Virus record (IMG/VR): IMGVR_UViG_2690316062_000001 | Span: 1 to 41,023 of that record | DNA length: 41,023 nucleotides | Source: a virus | Taxonomy: Duplodnaviria; Heunggongvirae; Uroviricota; Caudoviricetes | Strand: one strand, 5' to 3' | In this document: piece after piece, positions 1-28,227 of the stretch | Layout of the letters: every line of letters starts with the position of its first letter | Position numbering within the stretch: position 1 is the stretch's first letter | Position numbers and translations under genes: made by a program | Notes under the pieces: model-generated | Told to the model about the DNA's origin: nothing | What the model saw: only the letters and a program-made list of their open reading frames with translations | Databases searched by the model: none

Positions 1-380
1 TCCTCATGCATAAGATAAGGGGCAAGTTCACTTCCTAAGTAGAACCCTGCTTCTTTACAGGTATCACCAATTATCGCGTTGGTTAATCCAAGGTTTTCGA
101 GAGCCGTTTTCACCGTGCCATCCGATTTGATATCGCCAAACGGATTCTTGCGGCTTAACAGCAGCGCGCGAAGCGCGGTAAGTAGCTGGTCGTGCCGCCC
201 CTTATCCAGGCTGGCACCGGACGCCTCCACAACGCTGCAAAGCTCCTCCTGCAACATGTCAAAGTAGTCATCATCCAGATCGGTGGCAGGCGTGCCGGTC
301 TGGGGGTTACCACGGGTAAAACCGTTCTTACCCGCGCCGAACTTATCCTTCTGCGCGGTTTTCGTGTCTATACGATGCAT
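1..380 (-). CDS. Side tail fibre protein, N-terminal 126 codons (gene continues beyond window start)
   Basis: Minus-strand ATG at 380-378 translates [47 protein letters not shown], the conserved N-terminus of lambdoid/Mu-type tail fibres; frame stays open to position 1. Confidence 0.75.
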
Positions 381-383
381 GGA

Positions 384-968
384 TTACTCCGGATATTTAA
401 AAATTACGTAGGTATGCGAAGGGCAGAGTTTGTTAAGCACGCACTCGACAACGGTGTCGCCCCAGATACGCAGTGCGGAATCACAGGGATCGCCACATGT
501 CATCCAGGTGGTGTTGGTGGCGGCTGGCATGTTGACCTGCCAGTAATAACGCCATTCCGGCGCATTCACTGCGTCAGTACAGGCCGATGAGCAGGTGAAC
601 GTGCTTTTATCGTATCGCGTGATAGTGGCGTCTGGTCTGCCCAGGGCAGCAAGCTGTGCAAGATAAAAATCCTCATTGATGCCGCCCGCCAGATTAACCT
701 TCGCATCCAGCCGTTGCTGACGCTGGCGAAGGGTCTGTGTCCCTGCGGGAATACATTCATCCGGCAGACCGCACAGACGCTCCCAGCGGTTTATCAGTTC
801 AGTGGTGGTGCGCGGATCCAGCTCCCGCATCAGGGCATCCGCACGCTGATGAACGCGGGTTAATGACGGTGCCGCACCGGCAATCGCCGGATCGCTGACT
901 GACCACGCCGGACCGGGCGGCAACAGTGCCGACAACAGACGGATATAATCATCGTTTGTCACGTCCAT
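384..968 (-). CDS. Tail/baseplate protein, Mu gp48-like (DUF2313-type)
   Basis: 194-aa ORF, overlaps upstream baseplate J gene by 10 nt; position and size fit the last baseplate gene before the fibre in Mu-type tail modules. Confidence 0.55.
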
Positions 969-2017
969 GAAATCGTCCCCAGTACCGCCAGTTCATTTTT
1001 TGCAATGGAGATATTGTCCACCGGTGCAAGCAACTGATGGCTGTATTCCCCGTTCGCACCGGAAATCGCCTCACTGATACGCGATACCTTCAGTTCTCCC
1101 TGCGGATAACCATCACGCAGCAGGAACGAACGCAACTCCGCGGTAATGGCAGCCCGTATTTCCGGTGTGTCCGGCGTCACGCGGATATGAAAATCCACCG
1201 TATGTGCCACCGGCCTGAATACATACAAATCAGAGCCTGCCACCGGGGCCAGTGGCCCGATATGTTGTCTTGCTGCCGTTTCCGTTGATTCTTCCGGAAT
1301 GGGATTAATCAGGTCACTGCTGGCAATCATCACACCGACAGTTCCCGTTCCCATCCAGTGACGGTATGTCCATGCGCGGGTAATGCCGGGCACTTCTTTA
1401 GCCCAGACGACATAGTCCCCGTCAGCCCCGCCCTGAGGCGTCCAGTAATACCGCTCAATGACGCGGGCGCGCCACGTTTCCAGCTCTTCAGTATCAAATC
1501 CACCTGTCAGGGTATCTGCCACGCCGGAAGACGGCAGACCATTCACCGGCGTGACCAGGATTAATGACGTACCGTCGTCAGCGTTACCGACCGCGCCTGC
1601 ACTTGAGCAGGCGATCGGCACGCGCAGGACACCACTGGAGCTGGTTGCATCGGCAGTTGCCGTGTACTGAACCAGGTCATCGCGCTGAATAACACTCCCG
1701 GCGGTCACCTTCAGGCCATCGCTGACACCTTCCCAGCGCATATACCCGCTGGCAGCCGTGGCCCCCTTGCGCGGACACCGTTTCATCGCAGCATGTCGCG
1801 CCAGCCAGGACTCATCGCACAGGTCAGGCAGCATGTTCATTGCCAGATAATCGATGTACCCGTAAACCGTATGCAGCGCCGCCGCATACACCTTTGCCCG
1901 CACGTCTTCATCCATGCGCCGGAGCGTGTCGCTGACGTCCAGCCTGGCGAATAAATCGTTACGGAGCATACTGATATTTTCTGCCAGCGTCGGGCGCTGA
2001 AATTCACTGTCCGCCAT
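959..2017 (-). CDS. Baseplate J-like protein (Mu gp47-like)
   Basis: 352-aa ORF in baseplate gene run; overlapping starts and stops with neighbours typical of a structural operon. Confidence 0.65.
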
Positions 2018-2432
2018 GCGTTATCGCACTCCACAGATCATCAAAAGAAATCATTACCGGTCCGTCACGACGCCAGAGAGTGATACTGTTACCCAGTTCA
2101 TTAATCCCGGTGCGGCGGATATCCAGATCAATACGGGACACCACGCCGTCATCAGTCATCCATTGCAGGCATTCGCGGATATACCCCCTTACCGTCTGCA
2201 CCAGCTGATTGGTCAGTTTGCTGCGCTGAAGCAGCCACAGTCGGGAGCCGTAACGGTCATTCTGTACCGCAGGCCAGGTATCCCCCCACCATCCCATCGG
2301 GACGTCGGCGTTGTCATCAGGCTCCGCCCGCCGCCAGGTAAACAGGGAAATCACCACGGCGCGGGTCAGCGGATCCAGCGGTGCGCTGGCGCAGGTGCGT
2401 TTACCGTTCACCGTCAGCCACAGTTCCATCAT
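2004..2432 (-). CDS. Baseplate protein, Mu gp46-like (phage GP46 family)
   Basis: 142-aa ORF between spike and J genes; order matches Mu-type baseplates. Confidence 0.55.
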   Translation of the reverse strand: MMELWLTVNGKRTCASAPLDPLTRAVVISLFTWRRAEPDDNADVPMGWWGDTWPAVQNDRYGSRLWLLQRSKLTNQLVQTVRGYIRECLQWMTDDGVVSRIDLDIRRTGINELGNSITLWRRDGPVMISFDDLWSAITHGGQ

Positions 2433-2977
2433 GCCTCCATCGCTTTATCAGGTTTGTCGGTGTTACTGCCCTGACCGTTCTCTCTGTGACGATGCCCATT
2501 ATAGGCAAGCCGCATCGCTGACATGGTGGTGCCGCCGGAGTCGCACAGGTCTTTCACCTGTCCTGTCACTTCCAGGTCCATTTCAAAACGCGCTTTAGGT
2601 GAATTGCGAAACGTGATCGTTTTACCTGCACCGTCCACCACAATCCCCTCCCGGGTCAGCGTCACGGACTGCCCCTGATCGTCATAGACAGCCACCTCAC
2701 CCGTCTGCAGCCCTTTCAGGCGGTAGCGCCGGTCCGACACCGTAACAACCACCGCATGAGAACGGTCGCCATCCGGAAACAACACCACCGCTTCCGCACC
2801 GCTGTTTGCCCTTGCGGTAAAACCGTAGGGTTCAAGATGTTCAACCCCGGCTTTGGGTTCACCGGCAATCAGGGACACATCCACGGTCTGACATTTCGTG
2901 GCGGCACTGATACTTTTCACCACTGCCCGCCCAATCAGGCCGAGGAGTTGTCGCTGCATGGCTTCAATCGTCCTCAT
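2429..2977 (-). CDS. Baseplate assembly protein V / central spike (Mu gp45-like)
   Basis: 182-aa ORF, ATGA overlap with next gene, downstream of hub protein gene. Confidence 0.6.
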   Translation of the reverse strand: MRTIEAMQRQLLGLIGRAVVKSISAATKCQTVDVSLIAGEPKAGVEHLEPYGFTARANSGAEAVVLFPDGDRSHAVVVTVSDRRYRLKGLQTGEVAVYDDQGQSVTLTREGIVVDGAGKTITFRNSPKARFEMDLEVTGQVKDLCDSGGTTMSAMRLAYNGHRHRENGQGSNTDKPDKAMEA

Positions 2978-4056
2978 CAGAACGGGTCCTCCTGTACTCT
3001 GGCTTTTTTCTTTTTCCGCGCGCCGGGGGCTTCGGGTTCAGGCAGATAAGCATCAGGTGGGCCGACACGGATTTCCGTCAGGGTGCCGTTCTGGTCCTGA
3101 GTAAACGTGACTTCCGAGACAAGCAGTTCGGTATTGTCGAAACCACAGACCGGATCGAAGACAATCACCCGCTGGTTGGGCTGCCACAGCGTACCGTTAC
3201 CCTGTCGCCAGCCCTGCACCACATAGGTGGTTTCATCCGTCCGCGCCGCCCGTTGCCGGGCTTCAAAGTCAGCACGCGCGATACAGCCTGCCCCCGTGGC
3301 CTGCCCTGTCTGCCTGATATACATCGGACGGTAACGGGCAATAAATGCGTCCTCTGTGCGGGCCCGCAGCGCGGTGGTGGTGGTCTCACCGAAATCATCG
3401 TCGTTTCCGGCACGCTGCCCCGCCACCTGGTAAACAGAAAATCGCTCCCGGATACTCTTCTCCGTATCGCAGGAAAGGATGTTTTCCCCGAGTACCAGCG
3501 CAGTATGTGCCCGCGTTGAGCCAATACCGCCAATCACCAGCCTGCCGTGCGGGTCGTCGTAAGCCAGTGCCTGCTGCTGACCGAGTATTTTGTTGATTAC
3601 CTCAATCACCGTTTCACCGTGATCAGGCTGAACATCAGGAATAACACCCGACGGCGCACCGCTGTTCACCACCTCAATACCGAAAGGCGCAGCAAGCGCC
3701 TGCGCAATCTGCACCAGCGAGCGTCCGTTAAACTGTGTCGGTTCGGCTGCACAGTCAATCAGGTCTGCCGTCAGACTACGTCCGGCAATACCGGTGCTGA
3801 CCGAACGGGCATCGTAACGAACGGGCGTCGCCTCCACCCAGCCGGTGATCACCAGCTCATCACCAATCAGCACTTCCACTTTTGAACCATTTTTAATGCG
3901 CGGCTGAAGCGTGGTGATACCCTCATCTCCCGGCCACTGGCGGGTGATCTCCACACTGAAATCCCGCGCCAGCCGTTCAATACCGGCACCGATGCGCACC
4001 GATGTCCAGCCATTCCACTCCCGGCCATTTACCCGTAGCGTGACATTGTCGTTCAT
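2977..4056 (-). CDS. Baseplate hub / tail protein (Mu gpP-like, late control D family)
   Basis: 359-aa ORF after the DNA circulation gene; 4-nt overlap with it. Confidence 0.6.
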   Translation of the reverse strand: MNDNVTLRVNGREWNGWTSVRIGAGIERLARDFSVEITRQWPGDEGITTLQPRIKNGSKVEVLIGDELVITGWVEATPVRYDARSVSTGIAGRSLTADLIDCAAEPTQFNGRSLVQIAQALAAPFGIEVVNSGAPSGVIPDVQPDHGETVIEVINKILGQQQALAYDDPHGRLVIGGIGSTRAHTALVLGENILSCDTEKSIRERFSVYQVAGQRAGNDDDFGETTTTALRARTEDAFIARYRPMYIRQTGQATGAGCIARADFEARQRAARTDETTYVVQGWRQGNGTLWQPNQRVIVFDPVCGFDNTELLVSEVTFTQDQNGTLTEIRVGPPDAYLPEPEAPGARKKKKARVQEDPF

Positions 4057-5387
4057 TGCACTGGCACCTTCAGAGGGATCACCGGCACAAAGCCGGGATG
4101 CGTAATGGCATTACGCCGGATAATGTCCGCGTCACGCGCCGCGTTATCAAACCAGGTCGCCGCCAGCACCAGCGCGGGTAAAACCTCATCCGGTGTGCGC
4201 TGAATGATCCGTGCAGACTGTTCAAGGCGCGTGTTGATATCCGCATTCAGATCTGCTTTCACCCGGCGCAGCGCCAGAAACAGCGCATCACTGGTTGTAC
4301 GGGACAACTCCTTATCAATTGCCGTATTCAGTGTGTCGCGAATGTCAGTCAGTTCTTCCCACGTCGGCAGATCAACCGTGTTTTTCACCGCCGGTGCATT
4401 GTTCAGTGCCGGATGCGTGACGGAAGGCCAGCCGGTGCTCTGCGCAGCTGTTGTTGCCTGCCCCACTGCGGCATTCTGCATCACCGCGGAAGTTGTTGGC
4501 GCAGGCAATCGGGTGACGGCATACGCCGCTTCGCTGATTGCGGTCGTACGAAGGGTGCTGGCAACCACGTTACGCTGCTGCGTCGCCGTGGCGGTGGTTT
4601 TACTGTCCGTTTTCCAGACGCCGCGCGGTTGCAGATCGCTGCCGAGGCTGACACCGGAAAGCGTTTTGATCATGGTGACCAGGTCGCTGGCGTTACCATA
4701 AAGGCGTTTCCCGGTACGCCACATTTTCTGCACCTGCTCAACGAAATTTTTGCCTGACGATGGCGGCGGCAGAAGTACCGAGATATCCCCCTGCAACAGC
4801 CTGGCGGCATCCGATACGGCAGAATCCACCACTTTCATCGCATCAGAAACATACCCCAGCATTATGCTGGCATTACCGATAACGTCGTTCTGCACGAAAT
4901 CCGCCACACCATCGATACTGAAACCGCTGAAGCTGTCACTGATGCAGTCATCCAGTGCAGAACAGGATGACATCAGCGTCTGCGCCGTCGCCGCACCTGA
5001 TGTGGGGTAAGAGAGTTCTCCTGCTTCGACAAACTTCAGGTCAAAGCGGACAATACGCCCTTCACTTTTCGATGTGCTGACCCGAACTTCCCCGTCAACA
5101 CAGACTTTCAGCTCACCATATGTCGGGTGGACAAGCGTGCCGGGACCGGGTTTATTCAGCGCTTCAATCAGGCGATCGCGCTGGTCAAAGCAGTCATCTC
5201 CCACCACATAAGCTGTGATGGACGGGCGGAAAGTGACTTTTCCCAGATCTTCGGTATAGGGCTTGTCGCGGTTCGGGTATTCATGTGTTTCCACACGGCG
5301 ACCGGTTCCCGCACTTTCTTCTTCAACCTTAAACGGCACACCTCGAAATGACGCATCCTGAAGCCTGTCTTTCCACGTCATATACAC
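4053..5387 (-). CDS. DNA circulation protein (Mu gpN-like)
   Basis: 444-aa ORF; N-terminus MYMTWKDRLQDASFRGVPFKV...THEYPNRDKPYTEDLG...PGPGTLVHPTYGEL matches the recalled Mu N signature. Confidence 0.7.
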   Translation of the reverse strand: MYMTWKDRLQDASFRGVPFKVEEESAGTGRRVETHEYPNRDKPYTEDLGKVTFRPSITAYVVGDDCFDQRDRLIEALNKPGPGTLVHPTYGELKVCVDGEVRVSTSKSEGRIVRFDLKFVEAGELSYPTSGAATAQTLMSSCSALDDCISDSFSGFSIDGVADFVQNDVIGNASIMLGYVSDAMKVVDSAVSDAARLLQGDISVLLPPPSSGKNFVEQVQKMWRTGKRLYGNASDLVTMIKTLSGVSLGSDLQPRGVWKTDSKTTATATQQRNVVASTLRTTAISEAAYAVTRLPAPTTSAVMQNAAVGQATTAAQSTGWPSVTHPALNNAPAVKNTVDLPTWEELTDIRDTLNTAIDKELSRTTSDALFLALRRVKADLNADINTRLEQSARIIQRTPDEVLPALVLAATWFDNAARDADIIRRNAITHPGFVPVIPLKVPVQ

Positions 5388-5390
5388 TCC

Positions 5391-5421
5391 GAAAATAAAA
5401 AAGCCACCTATTAGAAGGTGG
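5391..5421 (-). terminator. Rho-independent terminator after tail-operon moron
   Basis: Minus strand reads GCCACCT-tctaat-AGGTGGC followed by TTTTTTATTTT, immediately 3' of the 5443-5973 ORF. Confidence 0.6.
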
Positions 5422-5442
5422 CCTTGTAATGAATTTTATTAA

Positions 5443-5973
5443 TTAGCGGGTCAGAAACAACGAATCTTTATACTTTTGCTGTTGTTCATTTAAATACTTA
5501 GCTGTTTCATCGCTGGCAAATGGAAATATTACCGTATTTTTAGGCATGGTAATTTCTTTTTTGTCCAGCGTCAGAGTAAACATAGGAACATACTGAGCAG
5601 AGTAACGCACCGCAGAAACGAGCTCTAGTTTAGACTCTTCAATAACACTTAAATTATCCAGGCTAACTTTCTCTTCATCTTTTTTCTTTGACGCATTTAA
5701 AGTTTTTATTACTTTATTTAATTTCTCCTGAAAATCCTCCTTAAAGTTTTCAGGATTGCCGTCGACAACAAGAATCTGTTCACCCTGATTATCTGGAAAA
5801 ATAATCTTTGCACTTATCAATTTATTTTCTTTATAAACATCACCAAGTTTTATGGCTCCTCCAGATAACTGAATAATATGTTCATCTTTAAAGGAGATGT
5901 TGCCAGAGATTATGAGAGATGAAAAAATAGCCGCTGCTCCAAGAATTACACTTGCTGTGATATAGCCTTTCAT
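5443..5973 (-). CDS. Hypothetical membrane-anchored or secreted protein (AT-rich moron inside tail operon)
   Basis: 176-aa ORF with hydrophobic N-terminus MKGYITASVILGAAAIFSSLIISG; visibly AT-rich compared with GC-rich flanking tail genes; own terminator. Confidence 0.6.
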   Translation of the reverse strand: MKGYITASVILGAAAIFSSLIISGNISFKDEHIIQLSGGAIKLGDVYKENKLISAKIIFPDNQGEQILVVDGNPENFKEDFQEKLNKVIKTLNASKKKDEEKVSLDNLSVIEESKLELVSAVRYSAQYVPMFTLTLDKKEITMPKNTVIFPFASDETAKYLNEQQQKYKDSLFLTR

Positions 5974-6064
5974 TTTTCGCCTATTAACATTTTTCTAAAT
6001 GTGCATTAATTCTATCACTCTATTTATGACTTACAACCAGCAATACATGTGAGGGGAATCCTGG

Positions 6065-7897
6065 CTACCAAAATCGGGTATAGCCAACATCGTGATTTAT
6101 ATCAATGCCACTGGAGCGTGTTTCCGTAACCCGCATACCTGGTGGCATATTTATAAATGATACCTTGATCTCACCATCAACTTTTGGCGCGGTAGCTTTA
6201 TTAATCATGAAGGGATTCGAGCCTGTGGCATCGGAGGCGTTGTTTGCCTGAGCCGGATCCACCGCCGGATAAGGAGTGTATCCCCGTGCCGGTATTCCCG
6301 TCCCATAAGCATCATAAGCACCCGCGCCCCACTGCGCAGAGTTAATGGCATCGACCGTGTCACCGGAACTGTCGGTAAACCACTCAATAATTGGCTTCAG
6401 CTTGTCCCACATATCCTGAAACCACTTAACAACCGGCCCCCAGTTATTGATCACCATCCCCAGCGGCGACCAGGCAAAAACTTTCTTAAGGAGTTCCCAG
6501 CCAGCCTCAAAATAAGGACCAATGGTTTCCCAGAGCTTCTTGAAATAAGGTCCGACAACATCCCAGTTAGTGATAATTAATCCCGCAGCCAGGGCTATCG
6601 CCGTCGCAATCATGCCAATCGGCGTCATCGACATGATCCTGCTGACAATGCTGATGGCACTGCCCACGCCCATCAATCCCAGTTTCAGAATCGCAAGACC
6701 GGCAGCAAGCCCGACGACGGCGCGAATAACCCGGGGATTTTCATCCGCAAACTTCGTGAATTTTTCCCCCAACTCCCCCAGCCATTGCGTGATATTTTTG
6801 GCGTCACCAGAAAATGCGCCGCCAATAGCCGCAAGGCCGTTAGTTGCGGTCCCCGTCATTGCCTCCCACAGGTTGGACAGCGTACCAAGCTGTGCCTGAA
6901 CACGTTTATTCAGGCTGGCCTGTTTATTCATCTTTTGCTGGATCTGATCGTAACCATCCTTTCCTTTATCGATCAGCGCATTGACCACCTGAAGGGTTTC
7001 GGCATCATCACCAAATATTGCCTTAAGTACACCTGTTCGCTTAACGTCGGTAAGTTTTCGCAGCTTTGCCAGTTGCTTAAACATGTTATCAAGACCGCCA
7101 AAACTTCCTTTGCCGTCAGTAAAATCGAGCTGTACCCCGAGTTTCTGACGGGCCATAACTTTATTGACGTCCCTGATTTTCTTAACGCTTAATCCGGACT
7201 GGATAACTTTTCGCAGGGCATTACCTGCCGACTCCCCGTTCATCCCCATCTGATCCATCATGACGCTGATGGGGGCAAGGCTCTGTGCAGCCTGAAGACC
7301 GTCCTTGTTCACCATCTTCAGAACAGAACTGGTTTTAGTGAAGAAGGACAACATGTTGGTATCGTCAACGCCCAGATAAAACGCCTTCTGGATAGTGTCG
7401 AACAGCCCCATCATGTCTTCTGACGCCGTTCCGGTAGCATCCTGCATCTTTGCAGCAAACTCAGCAGCCGCTTCCGGTGTTTTTTTTAGTTGTACCGCAA
7501 GATAAGCTGTCGCTTTACCCACACCGCCAAGAATATTTTCTGCCGGGATCCCCTGACGCACCAGCATCTGCATCATGTTCTGGAAATCAGCCGTTGTACC
7601 GGGTAGCTGGTTACCCAGGCCAATAGCCAGTTTATTGATGCCCTGAAAGCTCTTTCCGACCTCGCCGTTCGCATCCATCATGGCGACTTTCAGCCCGGTG
7701 GCGGCGTTTTCCTGATCGGCATAAGATTTCAGGGAAAGCGTCAGCCCCGCTGCCAATCCGCCACCAAGCGCCAGCCCACCCTGTGACGCCTCTTCCGCCT
7801 GGCGTTTAAATCCCCGGATTTTCTTTTGCATTTTCGACAGCGCGGGAGAAAGCCTGTCGACACCGGTGATCAACGCCTTAAGCTCAAATTCAGCCAT
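6065..7897 (-). CDS. Tail tape measure protein
   Basis: 610-aa ORF rich in Gly/Ala with hydrophobic segments, immediately after chaperone frameshift pair. Confidence 0.85.
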   Translation of the reverse strand: MAEFELKALITGVDRLSPALSKMQKKIRGFKRQAEEASQGGLALGGGLAAGLTLSLKSYADQENAATGLKVAMMDANGEVGKSFQGINKLAIGLGNQLPGTTADFQNMMQMLVRQGIPAENILGGVGKATAYLAVQLKKTPEAAAEFAAKMQDATGTASEDMMGLFDTIQKAFYLGVDDTNMLSFFTKTSSVLKMVNKDGLQAAQSLAPISVMMDQMGMNGESAGNALRKVIQSGLSVKKIRDVNKVMARQKLGVQLDFTDGKGSFGGLDNMFKQLAKLRKLTDVKRTGVLKAIFGDDAETLQVVNALIDKGKDGYDQIQQKMNKQASLNKRVQAQLGTLSNLWEAMTGTATNGLAAIGGAFSGDAKNITQWLGELGEKFTKFADENPRVIRAVVGLAAGLAILKLGLMGVGSAISIVSRIMSMTPIGMIATAIALAAGLIITNWDVVGPYFKKLWETIGPYFEAGWELLKKVFAWSPLGMVINNWGPVVKWFQDMWDKLKPIIEWFTDSSGDTVDAINSAQWGAGAYDAYGTGIPARGYTPYPAVDPAQANNASDATGSNPFMINKATAPKVDGEIKVSFINMPPGMRVTETRSSGIDINHDVGYTRFW

Positions 7898-8072
7898 GTG
7901 TGCGTTTCTCCTGCTCTATCCTGTTTGCCTGACTGACCAGCAAGGGAATTTCACTGATCGGCATATTCAGCAATTCGAAGGGATTAATGCGCCAGTAGCT
8001 GGCGCAGTCAAAGAAGCGATCAGTGAGGTATTCAGCCGTCAGGCCTGGAGGAAAAAACCAGCCACAAGCCAC
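7890..8072 (-). CDS. Tail assembly chaperone, -1 frame C-terminal extension (reached by programmed frameshift)
   Basis: ORF overlapping the 3' end of the 8039-8308 gene in the -1 frame; reading through the slippery site gives ...WFFPPGLTAEY... Confidence 0.55.
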   Translation of the reverse strand: MACGWFFPPGLTAEYLTDRFFDCASYWRINPFELLNMPISEIPLLVSQANRIEQEKRTHG

Positions 8073-8308
8073 GCCGCTGCATTCAGGTCTGCCGGAGACA
8101 TCTGGTCGACAGAGCTTTGCGGCACTTTCGCCAGCCGCACAATGTATTTCGACACCACATGCGCCAGAAGTCTGACGGACTCATCCTGATTCATCTGGTA
8201 GGGATACCCCAGCTCGCGGACATCCTTCCCGGTGGGTTCATCAAACTCCAGTACGGAGAGTGTCTCACCATGAGCGATAATCGGTTTCTTTAACTCAAGC
8301 TCTTTCAT
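8039..8308 (-). CDS. Tail assembly chaperone (0-frame product)
   Basis: 89-aa ORF between tail tube and tape measure genes, the conserved position of the G/GT-type chaperone. Confidence 0.6.
   Translation of the reverse strand: MKELELKKPIIAHGETLSVLEFDEPTGKDVRELGYPYQMNQDESVRLLAHVVSKYIVRLAKVPQSSVDQMSPADLNAAAWLVAGFFLQA
8051..8057 (-). promoter_or_regulatory. Slippery heptamer T_TTT_TTC for -1 ribosomal frameshift
   Basis: Minus strand GCT GGT TTT TTC CTC CAG GCC TGA; heptamer T TTT TTC lies 4 codons before the stop of the upstream ORF, and the -1 frame continues into 7890-8072. Confidence 0.6.
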
Positions 8309-8664
8309 TACTGGTAATCCCCTTCTTCACCGTGGAACTCAAGATCAACCGTGCCTTCTTCGGCATTATGGTTCGCTTCTCCGTGCAGCCAGGCGGACGA
8401 CAATACATAGACCTGACCGTTCGCCAGCTCGGCAGTGATGGTCATCTCATCAGACGAGGTGATTTTGCTCACCGGAAAATTCTTCGGCACCTTGAAGGTC
8501 CCTTTGACATAAGGCGCACGGTGAGTTTCCTTGCGGTCCACTGAACCGTCCAGGCCGATGATGTCATCATTGACCGTCCTGTTCATGGGCACCTCAATGC
8601 CGCCGGTCAGCGATAGCTGCTGACCGTCAATTTTGAAATAACAGGTTCCCCCGATACGGGCCAT
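8308..8664 (-). CDS. Tail tube protein
   Basis: 118-aa ORF directly after sheath gene; MARIGGTCYFKIDGQQL... is tube-like. Confidence 0.75.
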   Translation of the reverse strand: MARIGGTCYFKIDGQQLSLTGGIEVPMNRTVNDDIIGLDGSVDRKETHRAPYVKGTFKVPKNFPVSKITSSDEMTITAELANGQVYVLSSAWLHGEANHNAEEGTVDLEFHGEEGDYQ

Positions 8665-10160
8665 TATGCAGACTCCTCTGAATACTGAAGACGGAACTGG
8701 TTAACCACGGCAAAGACACGCAACTGGTTAACATAGTCAGGCGGGAACAGCGTGTTCAGGCGGTTCGGATCGCTGGCATCACGCTCCACAACCAGGTACT
8801 GCTTAAACAGTTCGTAGTTTTCCACGATCCCCGCACGCTCAAGCTGACGGTAGGTTGCCAACAGTTCCCCTTTGATCACCGCCGGGGTGACAATCGCCTG
8901 ACCGGGACCAAAGCGGGTACCGTCACTGGCAAGCTTGTGACGCCCGTACTTACTGGTAATGACGGATTTCAGTTTGCGCAGTACATACGCGCTGGTATGC
9001 AGTGTCTCACTGTCGAGGTAGCTGTTATCCGCAACCCCGTAAGCGTTTTTCCTGTACGTGGTGACATCACGCTGAATGCGCAGTACCCCGCTTTCGACAT
9101 ACGCCGTTGCCACGCCATGAGACAGCAGGGTCTGTTGTTCGGTCATCGTGAACCGTTTCCCCTTCGGCGCAGGCAGCATACCCACCAGCTCACCGGTCTG
9201 CGTGGGACGTGCCGGATCGTTGCGGATAAACACCGCTGCGCGGGCGGTACGGCTTGCCGCAAGTTCGTCGGCAGGCGTCTGGGTCTCTTTTTCGTACCCT
9301 GCCAGGGTAATGTGCTGCTGGTTAAACTGGTCACCTGCGGTCACCAGTTCTGACAGCGTGCCGATCTTTGCCGTATACACATGACCATACAGCTGACGCG
9401 CATAGCTCCAGCGACCGCTGGTATCGTTCATCTCGGTCACCAGCGTGTTAACGGAGGCCGTGTCGTTGAACGGCAGGCCGATATAATCAAACGGCTCATC
9501 CGCCATTGCAGCCACCGCGCCGGTGAGAACCGGAGCACCCGTTCCGGCGGTACCCGTCGCCACGGCAATCTGTACGCCCGCTGGCAGCACTTCGCCCCCA
9601 CCAAAGCCGTAGTAATTGAGGCTGACAGGAATTTCATTCCCGCAAAGCCCCTTATGACGCGCGGTAAGTGTGACCACGCCTGCCGAAGATGAAGCCGTAA
9701 ACGGCAGGGCCGGAACGGCATTGATGGCATCTTTGATACTGCTGGCAATCGTCGTGACGTTATCGCCGTTGGTCACCGGAGCCTGCACGCGGGTACGTCC
9801 CACATAGACATTCACCGTGCCGCTTTCGGTTGCTTCCCCGGTCACCGCCAGCGTAACCGTTGCCGCCGCGCCTGTGGCTTCCGGAACGGCAATCACATAC
9901 AGCTCACCAAACGGGTCTGTCTGGCGATAAGCCTCGACCATACGCGCCAGCTGACTTCCCGCACCACAAATCTGGCGTGCATAGTCTGCCGACGGCATCA
10001 GCACCAGACTGTTGGCAACAATCTCTGCACCGTTATTGGCATGACCAATCAGCAGCGATGCTCCGCTGTCCTGTGCAGTATTCGCAGCCTGGTTATCCAT
10101 TTCCGCATAAAACAGCGGAACCAGCGTATTCGACGGAATGGTGTTAAAGCTTATCGTCAT
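8664..10160 (-). CDS. Contractile tail sheath protein
   Basis: 498-aa ORF, sheath-typical size, followed by tube gene with 1-nt overlap. Confidence 0.85.
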   Translation of the reverse strand: MTISFNTIPSNTLVPLFYAEMDNQAANTAQDSGASLLIGHANNGAEIVANSLVLMPSADYARQICGAGSQLARMVEAYRQTDPFGELYVIAVPEATGAAATVTLAVTGEATESGTVNVYVGRTRVQAPVTNGDNVTTIASSIKDAINAVPALPFTASSSAGVVTLTARHKGLCGNEIPVSLNYYGFGGGEVLPAGVQIAVATGTAGTGAPVLTGAVAAMADEPFDYIGLPFNDTASVNTLVTEMNDTSGRWSYARQLYGHVYTAKIGTLSELVTAGDQFNQQHITLAGYEKETQTPADELAASRTARAAVFIRNDPARPTQTGELVGMLPAPKGKRFTMTEQQTLLSHGVATAYVESGVLRIQRDVTTYRKNAYGVADNSYLDSETLHTSAYVLRKLKSVITSKYGRHKLASDGTRFGPGQAIVTPAVIKGELLATYRQLERAGIVENYELFKQYLVVERDASDPNRLNTLFPPDYVNQLRVFAVVNQFRLQYSEESA

Positions 10161-10322
10161 CGGTGTTCACCTTTTTATTCACGCGCCGGATATCACCCGC
10201 TGCTTCACGGCGCAGCCAGTAGTTGTTCTCGTCAACATTTCGCCCTTCGGCGGGCAAAAGGTCGCCGCGGGCAGGGTCAGGCACTGACCGCCCTTTAACA
10301 GGTTTGACAAACATGAGGATCC

Positions 10323-10883
10323 TCAGGAAGGAAGGGTTATTTCGGTGTGATGTTCGATATCGCCGTCAGGCCCGTTACCGGGCTCGAGATAATCAACATC
10401 AATCGCCAGCGTTTGCAGTTCACCCAGACTGTTCAGATCATCCTGCTGGCGGGTATCGTCTTCAGTCAGCTCGCTGATGACCGAAAAATCGAACTGATAA
10501 ATCAGCTCATGACGATTCAGATCCAGCAGCGTGCCGCCGTCATAGGTAATCGGGTTACCGCACGCTTCCGGGTTCCAGCCCAGCAGGGCCTTAAAGAGCA
10601 TTTGCCGGACATCGTCCACCACATCATACGAGGAAAACTGACCGCGCTCATCACGCCCGTTACTCAGTATGACAACCACGGAGAAGCCCTCTTTCAGCTC
10701 CTGCCAGTAGTCGGTCTGGCTTTTGTTTTCTCCCGGAGAGTCATCACCCGGTACCACATACGCCGCCGGGAGTCTCAGCTTTCCGACCTCCGGCAGATTT
10801 TTGAACTGTGCCGCGCCTGCCACCCGGTTTTCAAAATACGGGCAGCGGGCACGCAGCGCAGCAATAACAGGCGTCAGTTTCAT
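10323..10883 (-). CDS. Virion structural protein (tail completion / DUF1834-like)
   Basis: 186-aa ORF between head-tail joining genes and sheath gene. Confidence 0.45.
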   Translation of the reverse strand: MKLTPVIAALRARCPYFENRVAGAAQFKNLPEVGKLRLPAAYVVPGDDSPGENKSQTDYWQELKEGFSVVVILSNGRDERGQFSSYDVVDDVRQMLFKALLGWNPEACGNPITYDGGTLLDLNRHELIYQFDFSVISELTEDDTRQQDDLNSLGELQTLAIDVDYLEPGNGPDGDIEHHTEITLPS

Positions 10884-11386
10884 CTGTGTCGTCGCTCCGG
10901 CTTCAGTGATTTACGCAATTCCCGCGCCAGAAAATAGCGTGTCCAGCTGCGGTTCTTTTCAAGCGTTTCCACCATGAAGTTATTACGTGGAGCCAGTCGC
11001 CAGCCGCTGCCACCGGATGCACCACGATGATGACTACGACGACGTTTTGCTCCTCCCCGGACACCAAAAAACAGAAACGCCGGATAGAAGTCACCAGAGA
11101 TCATCCGGTTCCCCTTCCCGTTGCGCTGGTTAGGGGCAATGCGTGTCATAAAACCGGCTCGCTTTTTACTGGCTCTCGGCACCATATAACCAATCGAACG
11201 AGCCAGGCGTCCGGTCTGATAACCGGGGTTTTCACCCGGTGCCGACCGCGCACGGCGCATCACCAGCCGACGGGCATCACGCATATGACGCTGCCCAATC
11301 GTGACAAACGCCCGCCGGACACGGGCGCGGTTAAAGCGCATCTCGGCGGGCTGCTGAACATCAACGTGAAAAAAGGGAGTCGCCAT
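10880..11386 (-). CDS. HK97 gp10-like tail component
   Basis: 168-aa basic ORF in head-tail joining block. Confidence 0.55.
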   Translation of the reverse strand: MATPFFHVDVQQPAEMRFNRARVRRAFVTIGQRHMRDARRLVMRRARSAPGENPGYQTGRLARSIGYMVPRASKKRAGFMTRIAPNQRNGKGNRMISGDFYPAFLFFGVRGGAKRRRSHHRGASGGSGWRLAPRNNFMVETLEKNRSWTRYFLARELRKSLKPERRHR

Positions 11387-11771
11387 TGCTGCCTCCGTGA
11401 CTCTGCCTACATTCGCCCAGCTCCGTACACTCCAGCAGCAGAAAGCGCCGCGCCCCGTTCAGATCACGCTGACGTTTCACCCGGTACACACTGTCATCAC
11501 AGACCACCTCATAATCAGCAGTGATCCCCCGGCGGTAACGAATGGTGATGTAATGGGTGATGGCGTCCCCGGTCTGCGCGGTTTCCTGCCAGGTGGTGGC
11601 ACTGGTCTGGATAACCTTCGCCCATGTCCGGAACGTAACCGGGTATTGAGACTCCACGCCAAAGTTATCCGCGGGCATATCCACCCGCTGGCGGATCAGG
11701 ACGCGTTTATTCAGTTCACCGGGGTCCGGCAGAATGTAGGTTGCGCTGGTCTGCGCCTGACGAATTTTCAT
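11361..11771 (-). CDS. Head closure / head-tail adaptor protein
   Basis: 136-aa ORF following gp6-like connector gene. Confidence 0.55.
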   Translation of the reverse strand: MKIRQAQTSATYILPDPGELNKRVLIRQRVDMPADNFGVESQYPVTFRTWAKVIQTSATTWQETAQTGDAITHYITIRYRRGITADYEVVCDDSVYRVKRQRDLNGARRFLLLECTELGECRQSHGGSNGDSLFSR

Positions 11772-12091
11772 TGCGGAAAGTACCTGTACGGGCCGACAAG
11801 CCAGCCAAAACTCTGCGGCATGTCGAGTTTCTCCACTTCCGTAACCGACGAGCGGTTTTCGTAAAAATGGCTGATAAGCATCAGCATCCCCAGACGAATA
11901 TCATCCGGCAGGTGCAGCCCGTCCGGATCGCTGTCCGGAATGGTTTCATCCGGTGCATAGAGCTTCCGGTTCAGATACGTTTCCGTCCGCTTTTGTGCCG
12001 CACAGGCCAGCAGTTGCAGATGGCGGTCATCAGCATCGAAATCCTCATCCAGCCGGAGTTGGGCTTTAATCTCTTCCATTGTCAGAAGCAT
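11768..12091 (-). CDS. gp6-like head-tail connector protein
   Basis: 107-aa acidic ORF MLLTMEEIKAQLRLDEDFDADD..., typical of the HK97 gp6 family. Confidence 0.6.
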   Translation of the reverse strand: MLLTMEEIKAQLRLDEDFDADDRHLQLLACAAQKRTETYLNRKLYAPDETIPDSDPDGLHLPDDIRLGMLMLISHFYENRSSVTEVEKLDMPQSFGWLVGPYRYFPQ

Positions 12092-12093
12092 AC

Positions 12094-12294
12094 TCAGCCC
12101 TCTTTACTGGTCGTGGCTTTTTTCTCTTTTGTCGCTTTACTGCTTTTTGCACTGGTTCCGCGCTCTGCTAACCCGGCCTGAAGTGCAATCTCCTGCACCC
12201 GGGCAGGAAGCGCCCCGTCGTCATACTCACCGGCCCGAATGACCTCAACACGCATACCGTCCGGTGACCATTTCAGATCTTGTTTCAGGATCAT
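12094..12294 (-). CDS. Small hypothetical head-associated protein
   Basis: 66-aa ORF between capsid and connector genes with Lys-rich C-terminus. Confidence 0.4.
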   Translation of the reverse strand: MILKQDLKWSPDGMRVEVIRAGEYDDGALPARVQEIALQAGLAERGTSAKSSKATKEKKATTSKEG

Positions 12295-12315
12295 GATTCT
12301 TCACCCGTCAGAACA

Positions 12316-12336
12316 GGGGGCGCGGTTCCGCGCCCC
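12316..12336 (-). other. GC-rich hairpin between capsid gene and downstream genes
   Basis: GGGGGCGCGG-tt-CCGCGCCCC inverted repeat just 3' of the major capsid gene; no T-tract. Confidence 0.3.
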
Positions 12337-12343
12337 TGAGTGA

Positions 12344-13549
12344 TTACGCCGCTGCAATCTTCAGCAGTTTGATGGCCTGCGAATCGACCAGCATCCCGCC
12401 GGTGCGCTTGGTGGTATAAAAACCGACAAACGGTTTATTGGTGTACGGGTCACGCAGAATGCGGGTGCCGATACGGTCAACGATGGTGTAACCCCGTTTG
12501 AAGTTACCAAATGCAATGGCTTTCGCATCAGCGGCGATATCCGGCATCTGTTCGTTTTCAGCGATACCGTAACCCGCCAGAGAGGACGGCTGCCCCAGTT
12601 CCAGCCCAGGACGCCACAGATAGTTACCCTCGGTGTCTTTCAGCAGACGGATGGCAAACAGGCTGTTGTTGTTCATCATGAACTTCGCGCCAGTGCGGTG
12701 TGCCTTTCGCAGCGTGTAAATCAGTTTGATAATGGCGTCTGCGGTCACCGCAGTCGCGTCGCCGGATACAATATGCTGAAGTTTGCCGAACGCCCGGACC
12801 TTATCGGTTTCATCAGTGGACTCATACGCCAGGAACCCTTTCGGCTTCTTGGTGCCATCGCCGGAGGTAAAGGCAATTTCTTCCTGTTCGGCAAATTCGG
12901 TTGCCAGCTCGCTGTTGATCCAGGCCTCCACGTTGAAGAAGGCATCGTCCAGCATTTTCTGGGTAGCCTGCGGGTTGCCGTAGATTTCCCCCATGAGAGG
13001 TTCAATCAGCTCCAGTCTGGAGGTGGCAGTCTGGGATCGCGTATCCGTTTCCCCCACCCATCCGGAAGCCGTACCGCCCAGATTCACCAGTTTTTTGTAG
13101 TCGGAACCGCCAACGGTGATCACCGTGGCTTCCTGACGCATCGCCACTTCATCTTTCAGCAGGTTAAGAATGTTGCGATCCAGTTCTTCCGGCACGGCGT
13201 AGCCACCGTCTTCATCGGTGCCCACCTGCAATGCCTTACGCTCCAGATCGCGCAGACCGTCTTCACGGCCTTTACGCAGGAAGCCCACAAACGCCTCTTT
13301 ATGCTCGGTGGCCAGTTTATTTTGCGCTCCACCTGCCGGACGTTTCAGCTCAAGCAGCTCTTTTTCAAGGTCGCTTTTGAGATTTTCCAGCTCGCTGAGT
13401 TTTCCGTTCAGGGTTTCCACCTGCCCGGCAAGTTTGCCTTTTTCCTGCTCAATCGCCTCAACGCGCTTGTCGTTCTTTGCTTTGAAGTCGTCAAACTTCT
13501 GCTGCAGCTCCTGCGCGACCTGTTCGACATCTTTAATATCAACCGCCAT
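12344..13549 (-). CDS. Major capsid protein, HK97 family
   Basis: 401-aa ORF with coiled N-terminal delta-domain-like region, downstream of prohead protease. Confidence 0.9.
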   Translation of the reverse strand: MAVDIKDVEQVAQELQQKFDDFKAKNDKRVEAIEQEKGKLAGQVETLNGKLSELENLKSDLEKELLELKRPAGGAQNKLATEHKEAFVGFLRKGREDGLRDLERKALQVGTDEDGGYAVPEELDRNILNLLKDEVAMRQEATVITVGGSDYKKLVNLGGTASGWVGETDTRSQTATSRLELIEPLMGEIYGNPQATQKMLDDAFFNVEAWINSELATEFAEQEEIAFTSGDGTKKPKGFLAYESTDETDKVRAFGKLQHIVSGDATAVTADAIIKLIYTLRKAHRTGAKFMMNNNSLFAIRLLKDTEGNYLWRPGLELGQPSSLAGYGIAENEQMPDIAADAKAIAFGNFKRGYTIVDRIGTRILRDPYTNKPFVGFYTTKRTGGMLVDSQAIKLLKIAAA

Positions 13550-13563
13550 CGTATTTCTCCTGA

Positions 13564-14250
13564 TTAGAAGTTCAGATTTTTCAGTGCATTCAGTGCAGAG
13601 CCCACATCCTCAGCGTCGCGCAGGGACAGTGCGCCATAGCCCCCGGCCATGAATGCTTTGGCCTGGGTACGGGAGAGTCCGACATCACGCAGGACTCTTT
13701 CGATTTTTTTCTGTTCGGGGATTTCCCCGCGGGCCAGTGCGTTCTTGACGTCGCTGATCCGCGCCTCGTCGTTAGACGGGAACGTCACCAGGCTGACTTC
13801 CCAGAGGTCGATTTCTTTCAGCAGAAAGGCTTCTTTGCTCCGGTCGTATTCCCAGTCTTTCAGGACGTACCCAATAGAAAGGCCGGTTAACGAACCGGCC
13901 TTCATGTGTGCATGTGCGCGTTTTGCGAGGGGATCATCATCAATAAGCAACCGTCCCCTGACGTAAAGCCCGACATTGTCTTCCTTCATTTCGGTGTAAA
14001 CACCGATGGGTTCATCCATGCGGTGCTGCCAGAGCAGCGCAGGTAACGCTTTTCTGTCACTCCACGCCCGCAGGGAAGCGGCAAATGCCCCTGACATCAC
14101 CACATCATCGTGGCTGTCCTTTACACCAAAGACGGAGCCATACCCTTCAAACTCACCGGAGTCACTGACAGATTTCAGACTCAGCGGTACATCAAGACGT
14201 TGTTTCGTCTGCATTGGCGTTATCCTTCTGCTTACCGGCTTTACTGCCAT
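13564..14250 (-). CDS. Prohead protease, HK97 family (S78)
   Basis: 228-aa ORF between portal and capsid genes; sequence signature recalled as HK97-type protease. Confidence 0.85.
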   Translation of the reverse strand: MAVKPVSRRITPMQTKQRLDVPLSLKSVSDSGEFEGYGSVFGVKDSHDDVVMSGAFAASLRAWSDRKALPALLWQHRMDEPIGVYTEMKEDNVGLYVRGRLLIDDDPLAKRAHAHMKAGSLTGLSIGYVLKDWEYDRSKEAFLLKEIDLWEVSLVTFPSNDEARISDVKNALARGEIPEQKKIERVLRDVGLSRTQAKAFMAGGYGALSLRDAEDVGSALNALKNLNF

Positions 14251-15433
14251 CGGAGGGTTTCGTGGTCATGTTCATCGGTGTGAGATAGACATCACCACCG
14301 GGACGCGGATTCATATCTTCCAGGTCGCGGCAGTCATTGGGAGAGTAAATTCCCCAATTGATCCCGGTAGCGTAGGCTTCAAAACGGGACTTCATATCCC
14401 CGCGCAGTAAGGCCCCGGCGTTAAATTTGGCGTAATAAACGCCCTGCTTACTTTTTCGTACCAGTCCGGTGTTGATCCGCTGCTCAATGCGGGTCAGATA
14501 CGGCACCAGTGAATAGTTGATAAATCCCAGCCCCAGCTCTTCGATATTGTTGAAGGTGGCGCGATCGGTGTTCTGCACCATGTGCAACGGCACCCGGAAC
14601 AGACGACGGATTTCTTCAAGCTGAAACTTGCGGGTTTCCAGGAACTGGCTGTCCTCGGCGTTCAGCGCCATCGACTTCCAGTCCAGCCCCATCTCAAGGA
14701 TCATCGGGCGGTGAGCATTGCCAAGCCCGGTGTGACGCTCCTCAAAATCTTTCTTCAGGCGCTCATAAGCCTGATCTGACAGCGTCTGCTCTGTACGCAA
14801 CACACCCGACGTCACCGCGCCATTGCTGAACAGTCTGGCCCCGTGCTCTTCGGTCGCAGCTGCCAGCGATATTGCCTCGCGGGCATAGGCGATGGGATTC
14901 AGCCCCACCAGACCGTCCAGCGTCAGCGTGCGCACATGCCAGATATCTTCCTGGCTCAGTACATCCGTAGAGCCGTCCGGGAATGTGACCTGATAGACCG
15001 GCTCCCAGCTACTGTTAAGCTTCGGTACCACACAGCCGGGATCGACGGGCAGCAGTTCAGCCACTTCGCCAAATGCTTTCACTTTGTAGGCGTAAAAGTT
15101 TCCCCGCAGGCACAGACAGGTGACCACCAGCTCCCAGAACTCCTGCGGCGTCATATAGCCATTGGGATGCGTGGAGATCAGCTTATGCAGACGCTCGCCG
15201 GTGGCTCTCTGTTTCAGGCTGCCGTTCAGGTGATACAGATTGCAGGGCAACATCCCGACCGACTCTGCCAGCACCCTGACGCAGGAAAAAACCGCCGTCA
15301 GTCGCATGGCCCGCTGGCTGCTGATCTGCTTTCCGGTATAGGTGTCGTAGGACAACCCGATAGCATCCGCCAGCTCTGCTGGCGTGGTCACCGGTGCGTC
15401 ACTTTTTCGTTGAAATAATCCCGAAAAGAACAC
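14192..15433 (-). CDS. Portal protein, HK97 family
   Basis: 413-aa ORF directly after terminase large subunit. Confidence 0.9.
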   Translation of the reverse strand: MFFSGLFQRKSDAPVTTPAELADAIGLSYDTYTGKQISSQRAMRLTAVFSCVRVLAESVGMLPCNLYHLNGSLKQRATGERLHKLISTHPNGYMTPQEFWELVVTCLCLRGNFYAYKVKAFGEVAELLPVDPGCVVPKLNSSWEPVYQVTFPDGSTDVLSQEDIWHVRTLTLDGLVGLNPIAYAREAISLAAATEEHGARLFSNGAVTSGVLRTEQTLSDQAYERLKKDFEERHTGLGNAHRPMILEMGLDWKSMALNAEDSQFLETRKFQLEEIRRLFRVPLHMVQNTDRATFNNIEELGLGFINYSLVPYLTRIEQRINTGLVRKSKQGVYYAKFNAGALLRGDMKSRFEAYATGINWGIYSPNDCRDLEDMNPRPGGDVYLTPMNMTTKPSDGSKAGKQKDNANADETTS

Positions 15434-15615
15434 TATTTACCTCCGCCGACAGACGACTGTGTACGGTCGAGATATCGCGCCACCAGCCACGACCAGAACA
15501 GGCACAACGCCCCGGCAACAACAAACCCCGCCGGGGGATAAATCAGCCAGGCACCATACGCCAGCAAAAGCGCCCCCAGCACGCCCACCAGAGGCGCGAG
15601 AATCAGCATGATCAT
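15433..15615 (-). CDS. Small hydrophobic protein (uncertain)
   Basis: 60-aa ORF with two predicted TM segments, wedged between terminase and portal genes. Confidence 0.3.
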
Positions 15616-15626
15616 AATTACCTCAG

Positions 15627-17860: not shown

Positions 17861-17901
17861 TCCTGGTTAAATTTCATTTTTCGCGGGTATAAAAAAACGA
17901 T

Positions 17902-17950
17902 GGGGCGGGCAGTCCGGATGACGTCAGGTCACAGAGATTTGACCCGCCCC
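17902..17950 (-). other. Inverted repeat between HNH and terminase genes (candidate cos-region or terminator structure)
   Basis: GGGGCGGG at 17902-17909 and CCCGCCCC at 17943-17950 with internal TGACGTCA palindrome; on the minus strand followed by a T-run. Confidence 0.3.
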
Positions 17951-17976
17951 TCCCCTCAGACAGTTGAGAGTTATTA

Positions 17977-19976: not shown

Positions 19977-20666
19977 TTAATCCAGTTTTGCAATATCTTG
20001 CTGTGAAAATGTGGTCTTTTGTTTTGAACGTGTTTTCGTTAAAAGCAATAAAGCTTGGCTATCAAGCTGTAGAAAAATGTGCTTCATTGCAACCCAGCGT
20101 TCAGTAAATGTCTCAGACCAGTTTTTTGATGTCACTCCCACCAGTGATGCCAGCTCCTGGTATTCATAGGTCTTACGCCCTGCCAGCTCGTTCTTCACAT
20201 CCTGTGCCGCCAGCCAGATCAACTTCTTCAAACGTTCCAGTGTCTTACCTGCAATTTTCCTGGTACCCAACAGAGTCTTAAACTCGCTCCATACCCACTG
20301 CGTTATGGTGACCTGATGTTCCCAGCGAACACTTTCGCTGTAACTCCACAGCAACCACGCTTTCTGATGTTCTTCGAGAGACAGAACCGCGCGGCGCCAT
20401 GAAGATGTTGAGAACTCAACCTGGCTGACCAGTGCAATGGATGAACCTTTTGCGTACGACTGCTTACCGGAAATCGGCGGATTATCCAGCGTAATCATCT
20501 TGCCCGTTACCTCATCCAGAATGCGCGGCTTCTTTCGTTTATATTTACCAGTATCAAATTGTGCATGCTCCAGCCAGGCTTCAAGCTGGCCTTTCGTTGC
20601 TCCGCTCAAATCAGCAGTAGCCACAATGAGTTGCTCGCGGACATACTGTAAATATTGGGTATTCAT
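19977..20666 (-). CDS. Antitermination protein Q-like
   Basis: 229-aa ORF immediately after ylcG/rusA and before the late-promoter gap. Confidence 0.7.
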   Translation of the reverse strand: MNTQYLQYVREQLIVATADLSGATKGQLEAWLEHAQFDTGKYKRKKPRILDEVTGKMITLDNPPISGKQSYAKGSSIALVSQVEFSTSSWRRAVLSLEEHQKAWLLWSYSESVRWEHQVTITQWVWSEFKTLLGTRKIAGKTLERLKKLIWLAAQDVKNELAGRKTYEYQELASLVGVTSKNWSETFTERWVAMKHIFLQLDSQALLLLTKTRSKQKTTFSQQDIAKLD

Positions 20667-23558: not shown

Positions 23559-23616
23559 AAAGCAGCCCACACTTATGCGGGCTAACCTATTTCACTCGAT
23601 TCAAAAGAAATTATTT

Positions 23617-25124: not shown

Positions 25125-25172
25125 ACAAACCTTTTCTAAATTATAATTACACGCTTACTGTGATTAACTAAA

Positions 25173-28220: not shown

Positions 28221-28227
28221 AAAACTT

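Follow-up and report, generated by a model that had tools for sequence, protein, structure and literature searches.

What is a small, AT-rich gene doing inside the GC-rich tail operon of a temperate phage? The question is raised by IMG/VR virus record IMGVR_UViG_2690316062_000001, whose 41,023 nucleotides (the window) hold an SfV-like Escherichia coli prophage, in which lambdoid regulation is paired with a contractile tail of the Mu type and the late genes are on the minus strand. Between its genes for the tape-measure protein (TMP) and the DNA-circulation protein N lies an open reading frame (ORF) for the protein WP_000679479.1, annotated in RefSeq as a hypothetical protein. This cargo gene is dispensable for the phage, compositionally foreign and interchangeable with other envelope-protein genes, and it is very probably a moron encoding an envelope protein. 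The explanation put forward here as a whole is that of a moron with its own signals, which would be expressed in the lysogen and would most likely act in superinfection exclusion. This explanation draws on analogy with known systems, and its probability was put at about 0.45.

The cargo gene (5443..5973, minus strand) encodes 176 aa from an ATG start to a TAA stop and belongs to PHROG 5485. No overlapping ORF of at least 50 aa was present on the plus strand opposite it. The upstream backbone gene (6065..7897, minus strand) encodes a Mu gp42-like TMP (PF10145, E 5.7e-27) and is 97% identical at the nucleotide level to SfV and SKA5; the downstream backbone gene (4053..5381, minus strand) encodes a Mu gpN/gp43-like N (PF07157, DNA_circ_N, E 3.7e-34). 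These two matches bear out the position, between tape-measure and DNA-circulation genes, that had been given in a preliminary description of the locus. The same description called the ORF markedly AT-rich in a GC-rich tail operon, and its GC content was indeed 0.345 (GC3, at third codon positions, 0.305), compared with 0.514 in TMP, 0.560 in N, 0.586 in P and 0.574 in the sheath gene. In the half of the window that holds the structural genes (1-18000), the 600-nt bin 5401-6000 had the minimum GC content (0.338), and the runner-up had 0.488.

The stretch that differs among the window, SKA5 (another cargo) and SfII (empty) was delimited by a three-way alignment and the junction survey described below, and it forms a variable cassette at 5403..6064 (minus strand). 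Directly 5′ of the cargo ORF, the cassette includes an AT-rich spacer of 91 nt (5974-6064), which contains a promoter-like site; the range originally proposed for the element, 5391-5973, covered the gene and missed this spacer. When the TMP-to-N stretch was compared with phage records by megablast, both flanks were 96–97% identical in SfV, SfII and SfI, and a cassette of ~620 bp was missing. In SfII, TMP and N were separated only by an annotated terminator. SKA5 had the same TMP-to-N span with no similarity in the middle, where a 170-aa ORF was found instead; its product was unrelated in sequence to WP_000679479.1 (BLASTP E 2.9). Homologous recombination in the conserved flanks would be the simplest reading of the cassette exchange. 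A repeat search found no direct or inverted repeats around the cassette, and a signature of transposon-like or site-specific insertion was therefore rejected.

The junction survey used the two flanks joined as a query against 5,426 complete E. coli genomes. The TMP/N junction was found in 1,093 of them, 864 at a coverage of at least 80%. Among 48 full-coverage junctions, taken as an even-step sample of the ranking, ~28 were empty (855-bp span, ~58%), ~10 held this cassette and five held the SKA5 type; the others held an oligonucleotide/oligosaccharide-binding (OB) fold protein (three), a 225-aa protein (one) and a 145-aa protein (one). Genomes with each cargo were counted by cassette sequence, and the slot position was confirmed in one locus per type and in the 48-row sample. 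The cassette of the window occurred in 179 of the complete genomes (~3%) and was the commonest cargo type. In other E. coli, the slot is taken by at least four further, unrelated cargo genes, of which two are encoded on the opposite strand. These were the SKA5-type secreted protein, whose signal peptide looks cleavable (WQM42337.1/WP_001219112.1; 85 genomes), a tRNA_anti-like OB-fold protein, which has a membrane anchor and is encoded on the opposite strand (WP_000734912.1; 79 genomes), a lipoprotein with the lipobox LLGGC (WP_000866660.1; 55 genomes) and a two-helix membrane protein, also on the opposite strand (WP_061350224.1; six genomes). The two opposite-strand types were seen at L097 703-1149, L098 621-1007 and L101 685-1122, and the cargo at L098 resembles the OB-fold gene truncated N-terminally, with the membrane anchor lost.

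All slot cargo genes were single-gene cassettes with a GC content of 0.31–0.42, compared with 0.52 in the flanks, and every one carried an export or membrane signal, with anchors of differing types. Together, the cargo types gave 404 genome matches against the 864-1093 E. coli genomes with the junction, so cargo at this position is common, and the initial impression that accessory genes are uncommon here was wrong for this phage group.

Morons are recognized by their absence from close relatives, their deviant base composition, their own promoters and terminators and their expression from the repressed prophage (Juhala/Hendrix, PMC3594210). The cargo gene was absent from SfV, SfII and SfI and from the ~28 of 48 sampled E. 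coli junctions that were empty, its GC content deviated from that of its neighbors (0.345 vs. 0.51–0.59), and homologs deviated from their surroundings likewise in four other contexts. The preliminary description had interpreted it as a moron rather than a tail gene, and the empty sites of the three phages, the unrelated replacements and the homologs outside tail operons agree with this. Homologs that would make it a conserved tail-assembly component were looked for among related phages, with a negative outcome that contradicts a tail role. A membrane-anchored moron in a swappable slot is of an ordinary kind. In the literature, we found no paper on WP_000679479.1 or on a TMP/N cargo slot in SfV-group phages; neither a description of the slot nor a characterization of the PHROG 5485 family was found.

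PHROG 5485 (“unknown function”) matched residues 1-176 of the 176 (E 3.8e-108). An exhaustive profile search gave 77 clusters at E ≤0.001, nearly all of 165–195 aa, and a word-indexed protein search added few further distant members. Viral contigs searched with a single distant member gave nothing, and no carrier of the family was found in 50,697 phage records by megablast and tblastn. A Pfam scan of 64 family members gave scattered chance matches and no consistent family. Among homologs whose synonymous sites were unsaturated, the ratio of nonsynonymous to synonymous substitution rates (dN/dS) was 0.08–0.13, which points to purifying selection on the family.

The close relatives were near-identical E. 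coli copies and proteins of 53–58% identity in Leclercia, Lelliottia and metagenomes. The Leclercia and Lelliottia genes lay at the same position between TMP and N, with their own terminators and a GC content of 0.35 against 0.54. In IMG/VR, 77 of 80 loci had the order TMP, 94 nt, cargo gene, 64 nt, N, and the remaining three ended at contig ends. One of these 80 viral-contig copies (L078 5001-5529) had an extra T in a T-run at cargo codons 16-18 (5922-5927 in the window), resulting in a frameshift; it is a rare pseudogenized allele. Between the window and a Leclercia prophage, protein identity was 36% for the tape measure, 53% for the cargo protein, 68% for N, 82% for P, 86% for the tube and 75% for the sheath. 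The tape measure was by far the most diverged tail protein (window 6065-7897 vs. L004 6147-7931).

The distant members were found in other settings. A 29%-identical member was located in the baseplate module of an unrelated myovirus, between an E217_GP41-matching gene and a GpV-type spike gene (GC 0.377 vs. 0.52–0.57); its stop codon overlapped the predicted start of the gene after it. A 31%-identical member was carried by a lambdoid prophage, between the genes for antiterminator Q and the holins (GC 0.398 vs. 0.49–0.52), an interval that is a classic moron site. Another was found beside an IS3 element in a genomic island (GC 0.304 vs. 0.486), and yet another adjoined a tape-measure-like gene in convergent orientation. 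Every locus examined for the family was in a phage or mobile-element context.

Toward N, the cargo gene is followed by an intrinsic terminator (5390..5425, minus strand), located by a terminator scan and by reading of the sequence. On the minus strand, the hairpin (5425..5400, 10 pairs) is followed by TTTATTTTCG down to 5390, with the T-run at 5399..5390. Directly next to this T-run is the ribosome-binding site of gene N, GGAG (5390..5387), after which TGTAT (5 nt) leads to the ATG of N. The start of N is likely this ATG at 5381 rather than the GTG at 5387, and the gene is 1329 nt long in the RefSeq and SKA5 annotations. Cargo-free junctions also carried a terminator hairpin (SfII annotation; L102), with an identical T-run and N ribosome-binding site, and the Leclercia homolog loci had an equivalent hairpin with a different stem. 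Because the empty sites share these elements, the T-run and the N ribosome-binding site belong to the backbone and the stem alone is cassette-specific. Each cassette thus brings its own stem to a terminator, though empty junctions also carry one. The claim of an own terminator at 5391-5421 therefore stands in part: the location was about right and the stem is specific to the cassette, whereas the T-run and the presence of a terminator at the junction are backbone features. In one IMG/VR copy (L064 5529-6300), an IS200-type element with a Y1 transposase was located right after the hairpin, inside the T-run, between the cargo gene and N.

A terminator within the late operon would be tolerable because the phage encodes a lambdoid late-gene antiterminator, Q (19977..20666, minus strand; PF06323, E 1.8e-94). 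As judged from the known behavior of lambdoid Q, this protein would allow late transcription to continue beyond the terminator and through the tail genes. On the other side of the cargo gene, a sigma-70-like promoter candidate (6009..6036, minus strand) reads TTGTAA-16 nt-TAGAAT, with a TG before the -10 element, and lies 35 nt upstream of the ATG; it matched nine of 12 consensus positions in a consensus scan. The equivalent position held TTGTCA-16-TATAAT (11 of 12 matches) at L086 and TTGGCT-17-CATAAT (nine of 12) at L008. Promoter-like sites were therefore present at the equivalent position in three diverged lineages (the window, L086 and L008).

The protein itself was predicted to be exported. 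The ORF call and the Kyte-Doolittle profile agreed with the initial description of a 176-aa ORF with a single N-terminal hydrophobic segment: the 19-residue mean reached 2.1 at residues 4-24, and the later maximum was 0.9. An AlphaFold model built from a 64-sequence alignment (pLDDT 90.5, pTM 0.75) contained a helix at residues 2-23, strands at 32-36, 39-44, 46-58 and 67-72, a helix at 74-93, strands at 114-126 and 132-143, and a helix at 149-171. The predicted domain, from about residue 32 to 171, is an alpha/beta fold with a six-stranded sheet and two helices, with no solved relative. In the family, the net charge was ~+1 ahead of the hydrophobic segment and ~-0.7 over the following 15 residues. 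A lipobox pattern was found in one of 64 sequences, and the family is one without a lipobox. The membrane helix was conserved like the core of the fold (column entropy 2.33 vs. 2.32–2.37) and is lined on one face by small residues (G12, S14, S18 and S23). In the rest of the protein, G44 and Y124 were invariant, and G39, L43, Y47, E49, N93 and L134 were nearly invariant. We infer that the helix is an uncleaved signal anchor in the N-in, C-out orientation and that the domain is periplasmic. The membrane anchoring suggested at the outset is supported by the hydrophobic segment and the model, with one N-terminal helix and a downstream domain predicted to be exported.

A nuclease reading, based on weak structural hits to an RNase-H-like beta-beta-beta-alpha arrangement, was rejected, since the conserved residues form no acidic triad and the domain is predicted to be periplasmic. 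For the same reasons, a weak match to a PHROG ‘endonuclease’ (E 0.014) was dismissed.

The sole significant structure match in BFVD was a lipoprotein of phage ventosus (Foldseek E 1.7e-6, TM-score 0.56/0.66). This protein, CNR37_00111 (A0A2H4P829; L104 1995-2429, MG018930 51995-52429), has 144 aa and matched the family profile weakly (hhalign E 1.2e-4, probability 56%). The two share a motif after the anchor, KD.IIH...V.VGEV.AE vs. KDEHIIQ...IKLGDVYKE. In CNR37_00111, a lipoprotein signal (LLTGC) stands in place of the membrane helix, and the protein is shorter, with most of the first long helix missing. Ventosus is a virulent 97-kb phage of Pseudomonas syringae, and CNR37_00111 is not in its tail module; its neighbors are small hypothetical, non-structural genes near a putative anti-sigma factor gene. 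This relative, with its predicted lipid anchor, lends support to action in the periplasm.

The most likely function among the readings considered is superinfection exclusion during DNA entry, to which we give somewhat less than an even chance. Of the two candidate roles named in the preliminary description, superinfection exclusion and host interaction, exclusion thus ranks first. In the lysogen, the cargo gene would be transcribed from its own sigma-70 promoter; such transcription is suggested because promoter-like sites recur at one position in three diverged lineages. During lytic growth, Q-modified RNA polymerase would read through the cargo terminator into gene N. The periplasmic domain, held at the inner membrane, might interfere with the incoming DNA-delivery apparatus (tape measure, gpN and tail tip), or alternatively with an inner-membrane factor used by incoming phages. 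DNA entry would thereby be blocked and the surface receptor left untouched, as in the case of HK97 gp15 and P22 SieA. Three considerations favor exclusion: these two proteins are the nearest functional precedents with a like anatomy, a virulent phage encodes a remote homolog, and the genes on its two sides have counterparts in Mu whose products exit the virion together with the DNA.

HK97 gp15 is a superinfection exclusion protein of the inner membrane, related to YebO and encoded by a tail-operon moron adjoining the tape-measure gene (PMC3594210). Like the gene considered here, that of gp15 is compositionally deviant and self-contained, is located in the tail operon beside the tape-measure gene, encodes a small inner-membrane protein and is dispensable for the phage. 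The two proteins have no sequence relationship, and no gp15/YebO homology was found, as the cargo protein had no Pfam match. The gp15 gene is located upstream of a siphovirus tape-measure gene, whereas the cargo gene is located downstream of that of a contractile-tail phage. The cargo protein also has a folded periplasmic domain of ~150 residues in the model, and exclusion is proposed for it by analogy. P22 SieA is a prophage-encoded inner-membrane protein of 162–164 aa that acts on ejected virion proteins, blocking the conduit they form and with it DNA delivery; its membrane helices, as predicted, number three, and it carries the motif FxRYPxEAxxFNK, which is conserved and cytoplasmic (PMC10883804). 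The cargo protein is similar in size, and the blocking mechanism proposed for it follows SieA by analogy; however, it has one helix and a periplasmic domain, lacks the motif, shows no sequence similarity and is encoded at another genome position. The lactococcal Sie2009-type proteins and Ltp of Streptococcus phage TP-J34 also consist of an N-terminal membrane anchor (a lipid anchor in Ltp) and an extracytoplasmic domain. They are comparable in size, are expressed from prophages and block DNA injection, and the tape-measure protein is the reported target of Ltp.

Several observations weigh against exclusion or against the signals proposed for it. The cassette was found at 184 places in 179 genomes, so some genomes hold two copies. 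In a small sample, a second SfV-like junction was at least as frequent among genomes with the cassette (three of nine) as among genomes with an empty site (about three of 28). The co-resident junctions do not suggest strong exclusion of the phage’s own type, although either junction may have been acquired first and the second junctions may be remnants. No known exclusion or defense relative was found, with no match in Pfam (E ≤0.01), NCBIfam or PADLOC-DB 2.0 (E ≤1), and a profile search of PDB sequences returned only a dextranase at E 0.45. Promoter sites of the 9/12 type were no more frequent in the region than in shuffled sequence. The N-terminal segment may be cleaved by signal peptidase, in which case the domain would still be exported. 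Finally, the position beside the tape-measure gene is circumstantial only.

Among the alternatives, a factor for lysogenic conversion or host fitness survives best, although it is rather unlikely. According to this explanation, the periplasmic domain would alter the envelope of the lysogen, be it envelope homeostasis or tolerance of stress, bile, serum or antimicrobials, with no direct effect on phages; Bor and Lom of phage lambda are examples of lysogenic-conversion factors. The moron anatomy and the envelope location fit such a role equally well. The same prophage has a gene for a Lom/Ail-like outer-membrane barrel in another AT-rich island, and a slot alternative with an OB-fold (tRNA_anti-like) behind a membrane anchor does not point specifically to phage exclusion. 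However, the virulent phage that carries the remote homolog gains nothing from lasting host fitness, and because it does not persist in its host, a phage-directed role is favored over a host-virulence role. In addition, the family was found only in phage or mobile-element contexts across the loci examined, and the protein had no similarity to known virulence or stress proteins.

Two further possibilities are both improbable. In the first, the protein would, as an orphan, confer immunity to a periplasmically acting toxin, for instance a colicin or an effector of a type VI or contact-dependent system. The predicted architecture of an N-terminal anchor and a small periplasmic domain fits this, as does the mobile, AT-rich, single-gene cassette, and the colicin M immunity protein is likewise anchored in the inner membrane. 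In the second, the protein serves the phage’s own cycle late in infection, in lysis timing or in blocking re-adsorption or DNA entry into already infected cells, and would depend for its expression chiefly on Q-mediated read-through of the late operon rather than on the prophage state. The gene shares the orientation of the late genes that follow Q, one distant homolog lies between Q and holins, and another is part of a baseplate operon, where its stop codon overlaps the predicted start of the following gene. On the other hand, the window has a separate lysis cassette (18354-19667) with a holin gene and an Rz1/LysC-like gene, apart from the cargo gene. Closely related infectious phages do without the cargo gene, its promoter-like sites are conserved in position, and the modeled domain is a beta-rich alpha/beta fold, not a spanin-type coiled coil. 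The class of the i-spanins (Rz type) was rejected as well: an anchor is present, but there is no coiled coil and no adjacent lipoprotein ORF, and the lysis cassette is elsewhere.

That the protein is a conserved part of the Mu-type tail, whether structural or needed for assembly, has hardly any probability left: the gene does lie within the tail operon on the same strand, and TMP-X-N synteny (X being the cargo gene) is shared by E. coli prophages with those of Leclercia and Lelliottia and recurs in 77 of 80 viral contigs, but it is missing from SfV, SfII and SfI and from ~58% of the sampled E. coli junctions, unrelated genes replace it, some of them on the opposite strand, its product is predicted to be exported while tails assemble in the cytoplasm, and the family has members outside tail modules, a role in tail assembly being ruled out because the distant members are cargo elsewhere.

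If exclusion at DNA entry is the function, the locus would be relevant to a layer of phage resistance that is among the least understood. To our knowledge, few entry-exclusion proteins have been recognized (HK97 gp15, P22 SieA, Imm and Sp of T4, Ltp and the Sie2009 type), and almost none of them acts against contractile-tail temperate phages of enterobacteria. A bolder form of the exclusion reading, which we consider unlikely, is that the protein is the founding member of a mobile, periplasm-facing exclusion family, anchored by a helix or as a lipoprotein, which would neutralize the ejected tape-measure/gpN machinery of contractile-tail phages, and that the slot is a hot spot of at least five envelope-level anti-phage genes. 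The five envelope-targeted cargo types of the slot are compact and testable candidates for the guarding of the periplasm or inner membrane by prophages. Without a phage phenotype, the cargo gene would be one more uncharacterized moron.

Read along the minus strand, the late genes come in the order Q, the lysis region, the ORFs at 10323-17860 and the tail genes. The ORFs at 10323-17860 are taken, by position alone, to be the head and packaging genes. The tail genes include those for the sheath (8664-10160), the tube (8308-8664) and the baseplate hub P (2977-4056), all on the minus strand. In the Leclercia and Lelliottia loci (L004 10013-11808; L005-L008), two extra genes, encoding 503–520 aa and 94 aa with no Pfam match, were located between the DNA-circulation and baseplate hub genes; they were not present in the window.

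Other AT-rich segments were observed in the window. An island at 28192-30698 (GC 0.31–0.38) is located just downstream of a CI-like repressor gene (28192-28920; HTH_3 and Peptidase_S24). It contains a gene for a 379-aa Peptidase_M78 protein of the ImmA/IrrE type (29050-30189), with PADLOC matches to capP and RmrA-like models, and an overlapping gene for a DUF4411 protein (30186-30698); the two are a candidate defense or toxin-antitoxin pair. The AT-rich region 22200-25200 encodes the Lom/Ail-like outer-membrane beta-barrel mentioned above (24375-25124, 249 aa; OMP_b-brl, Opacity and OmpA-like matches) and an apparently split BD-FAE/alpha-beta-hydrolase gene (22515-22952 and 23028-23558). The prophage integrase gene is at 34701-35864, and a second integrase gene lies beyond it at 36111-37430. 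The segment 36111-40936 is probably a separate neighboring island; within it, an AT-rich stretch (GC 0.35–0.41) encodes both a YagK/YfjJ_C protein (39538-40158) and a HATPase_c_4 protein of 240 aa (40214-40936), which matched the pAgo-associated Aga models of PADLOC.

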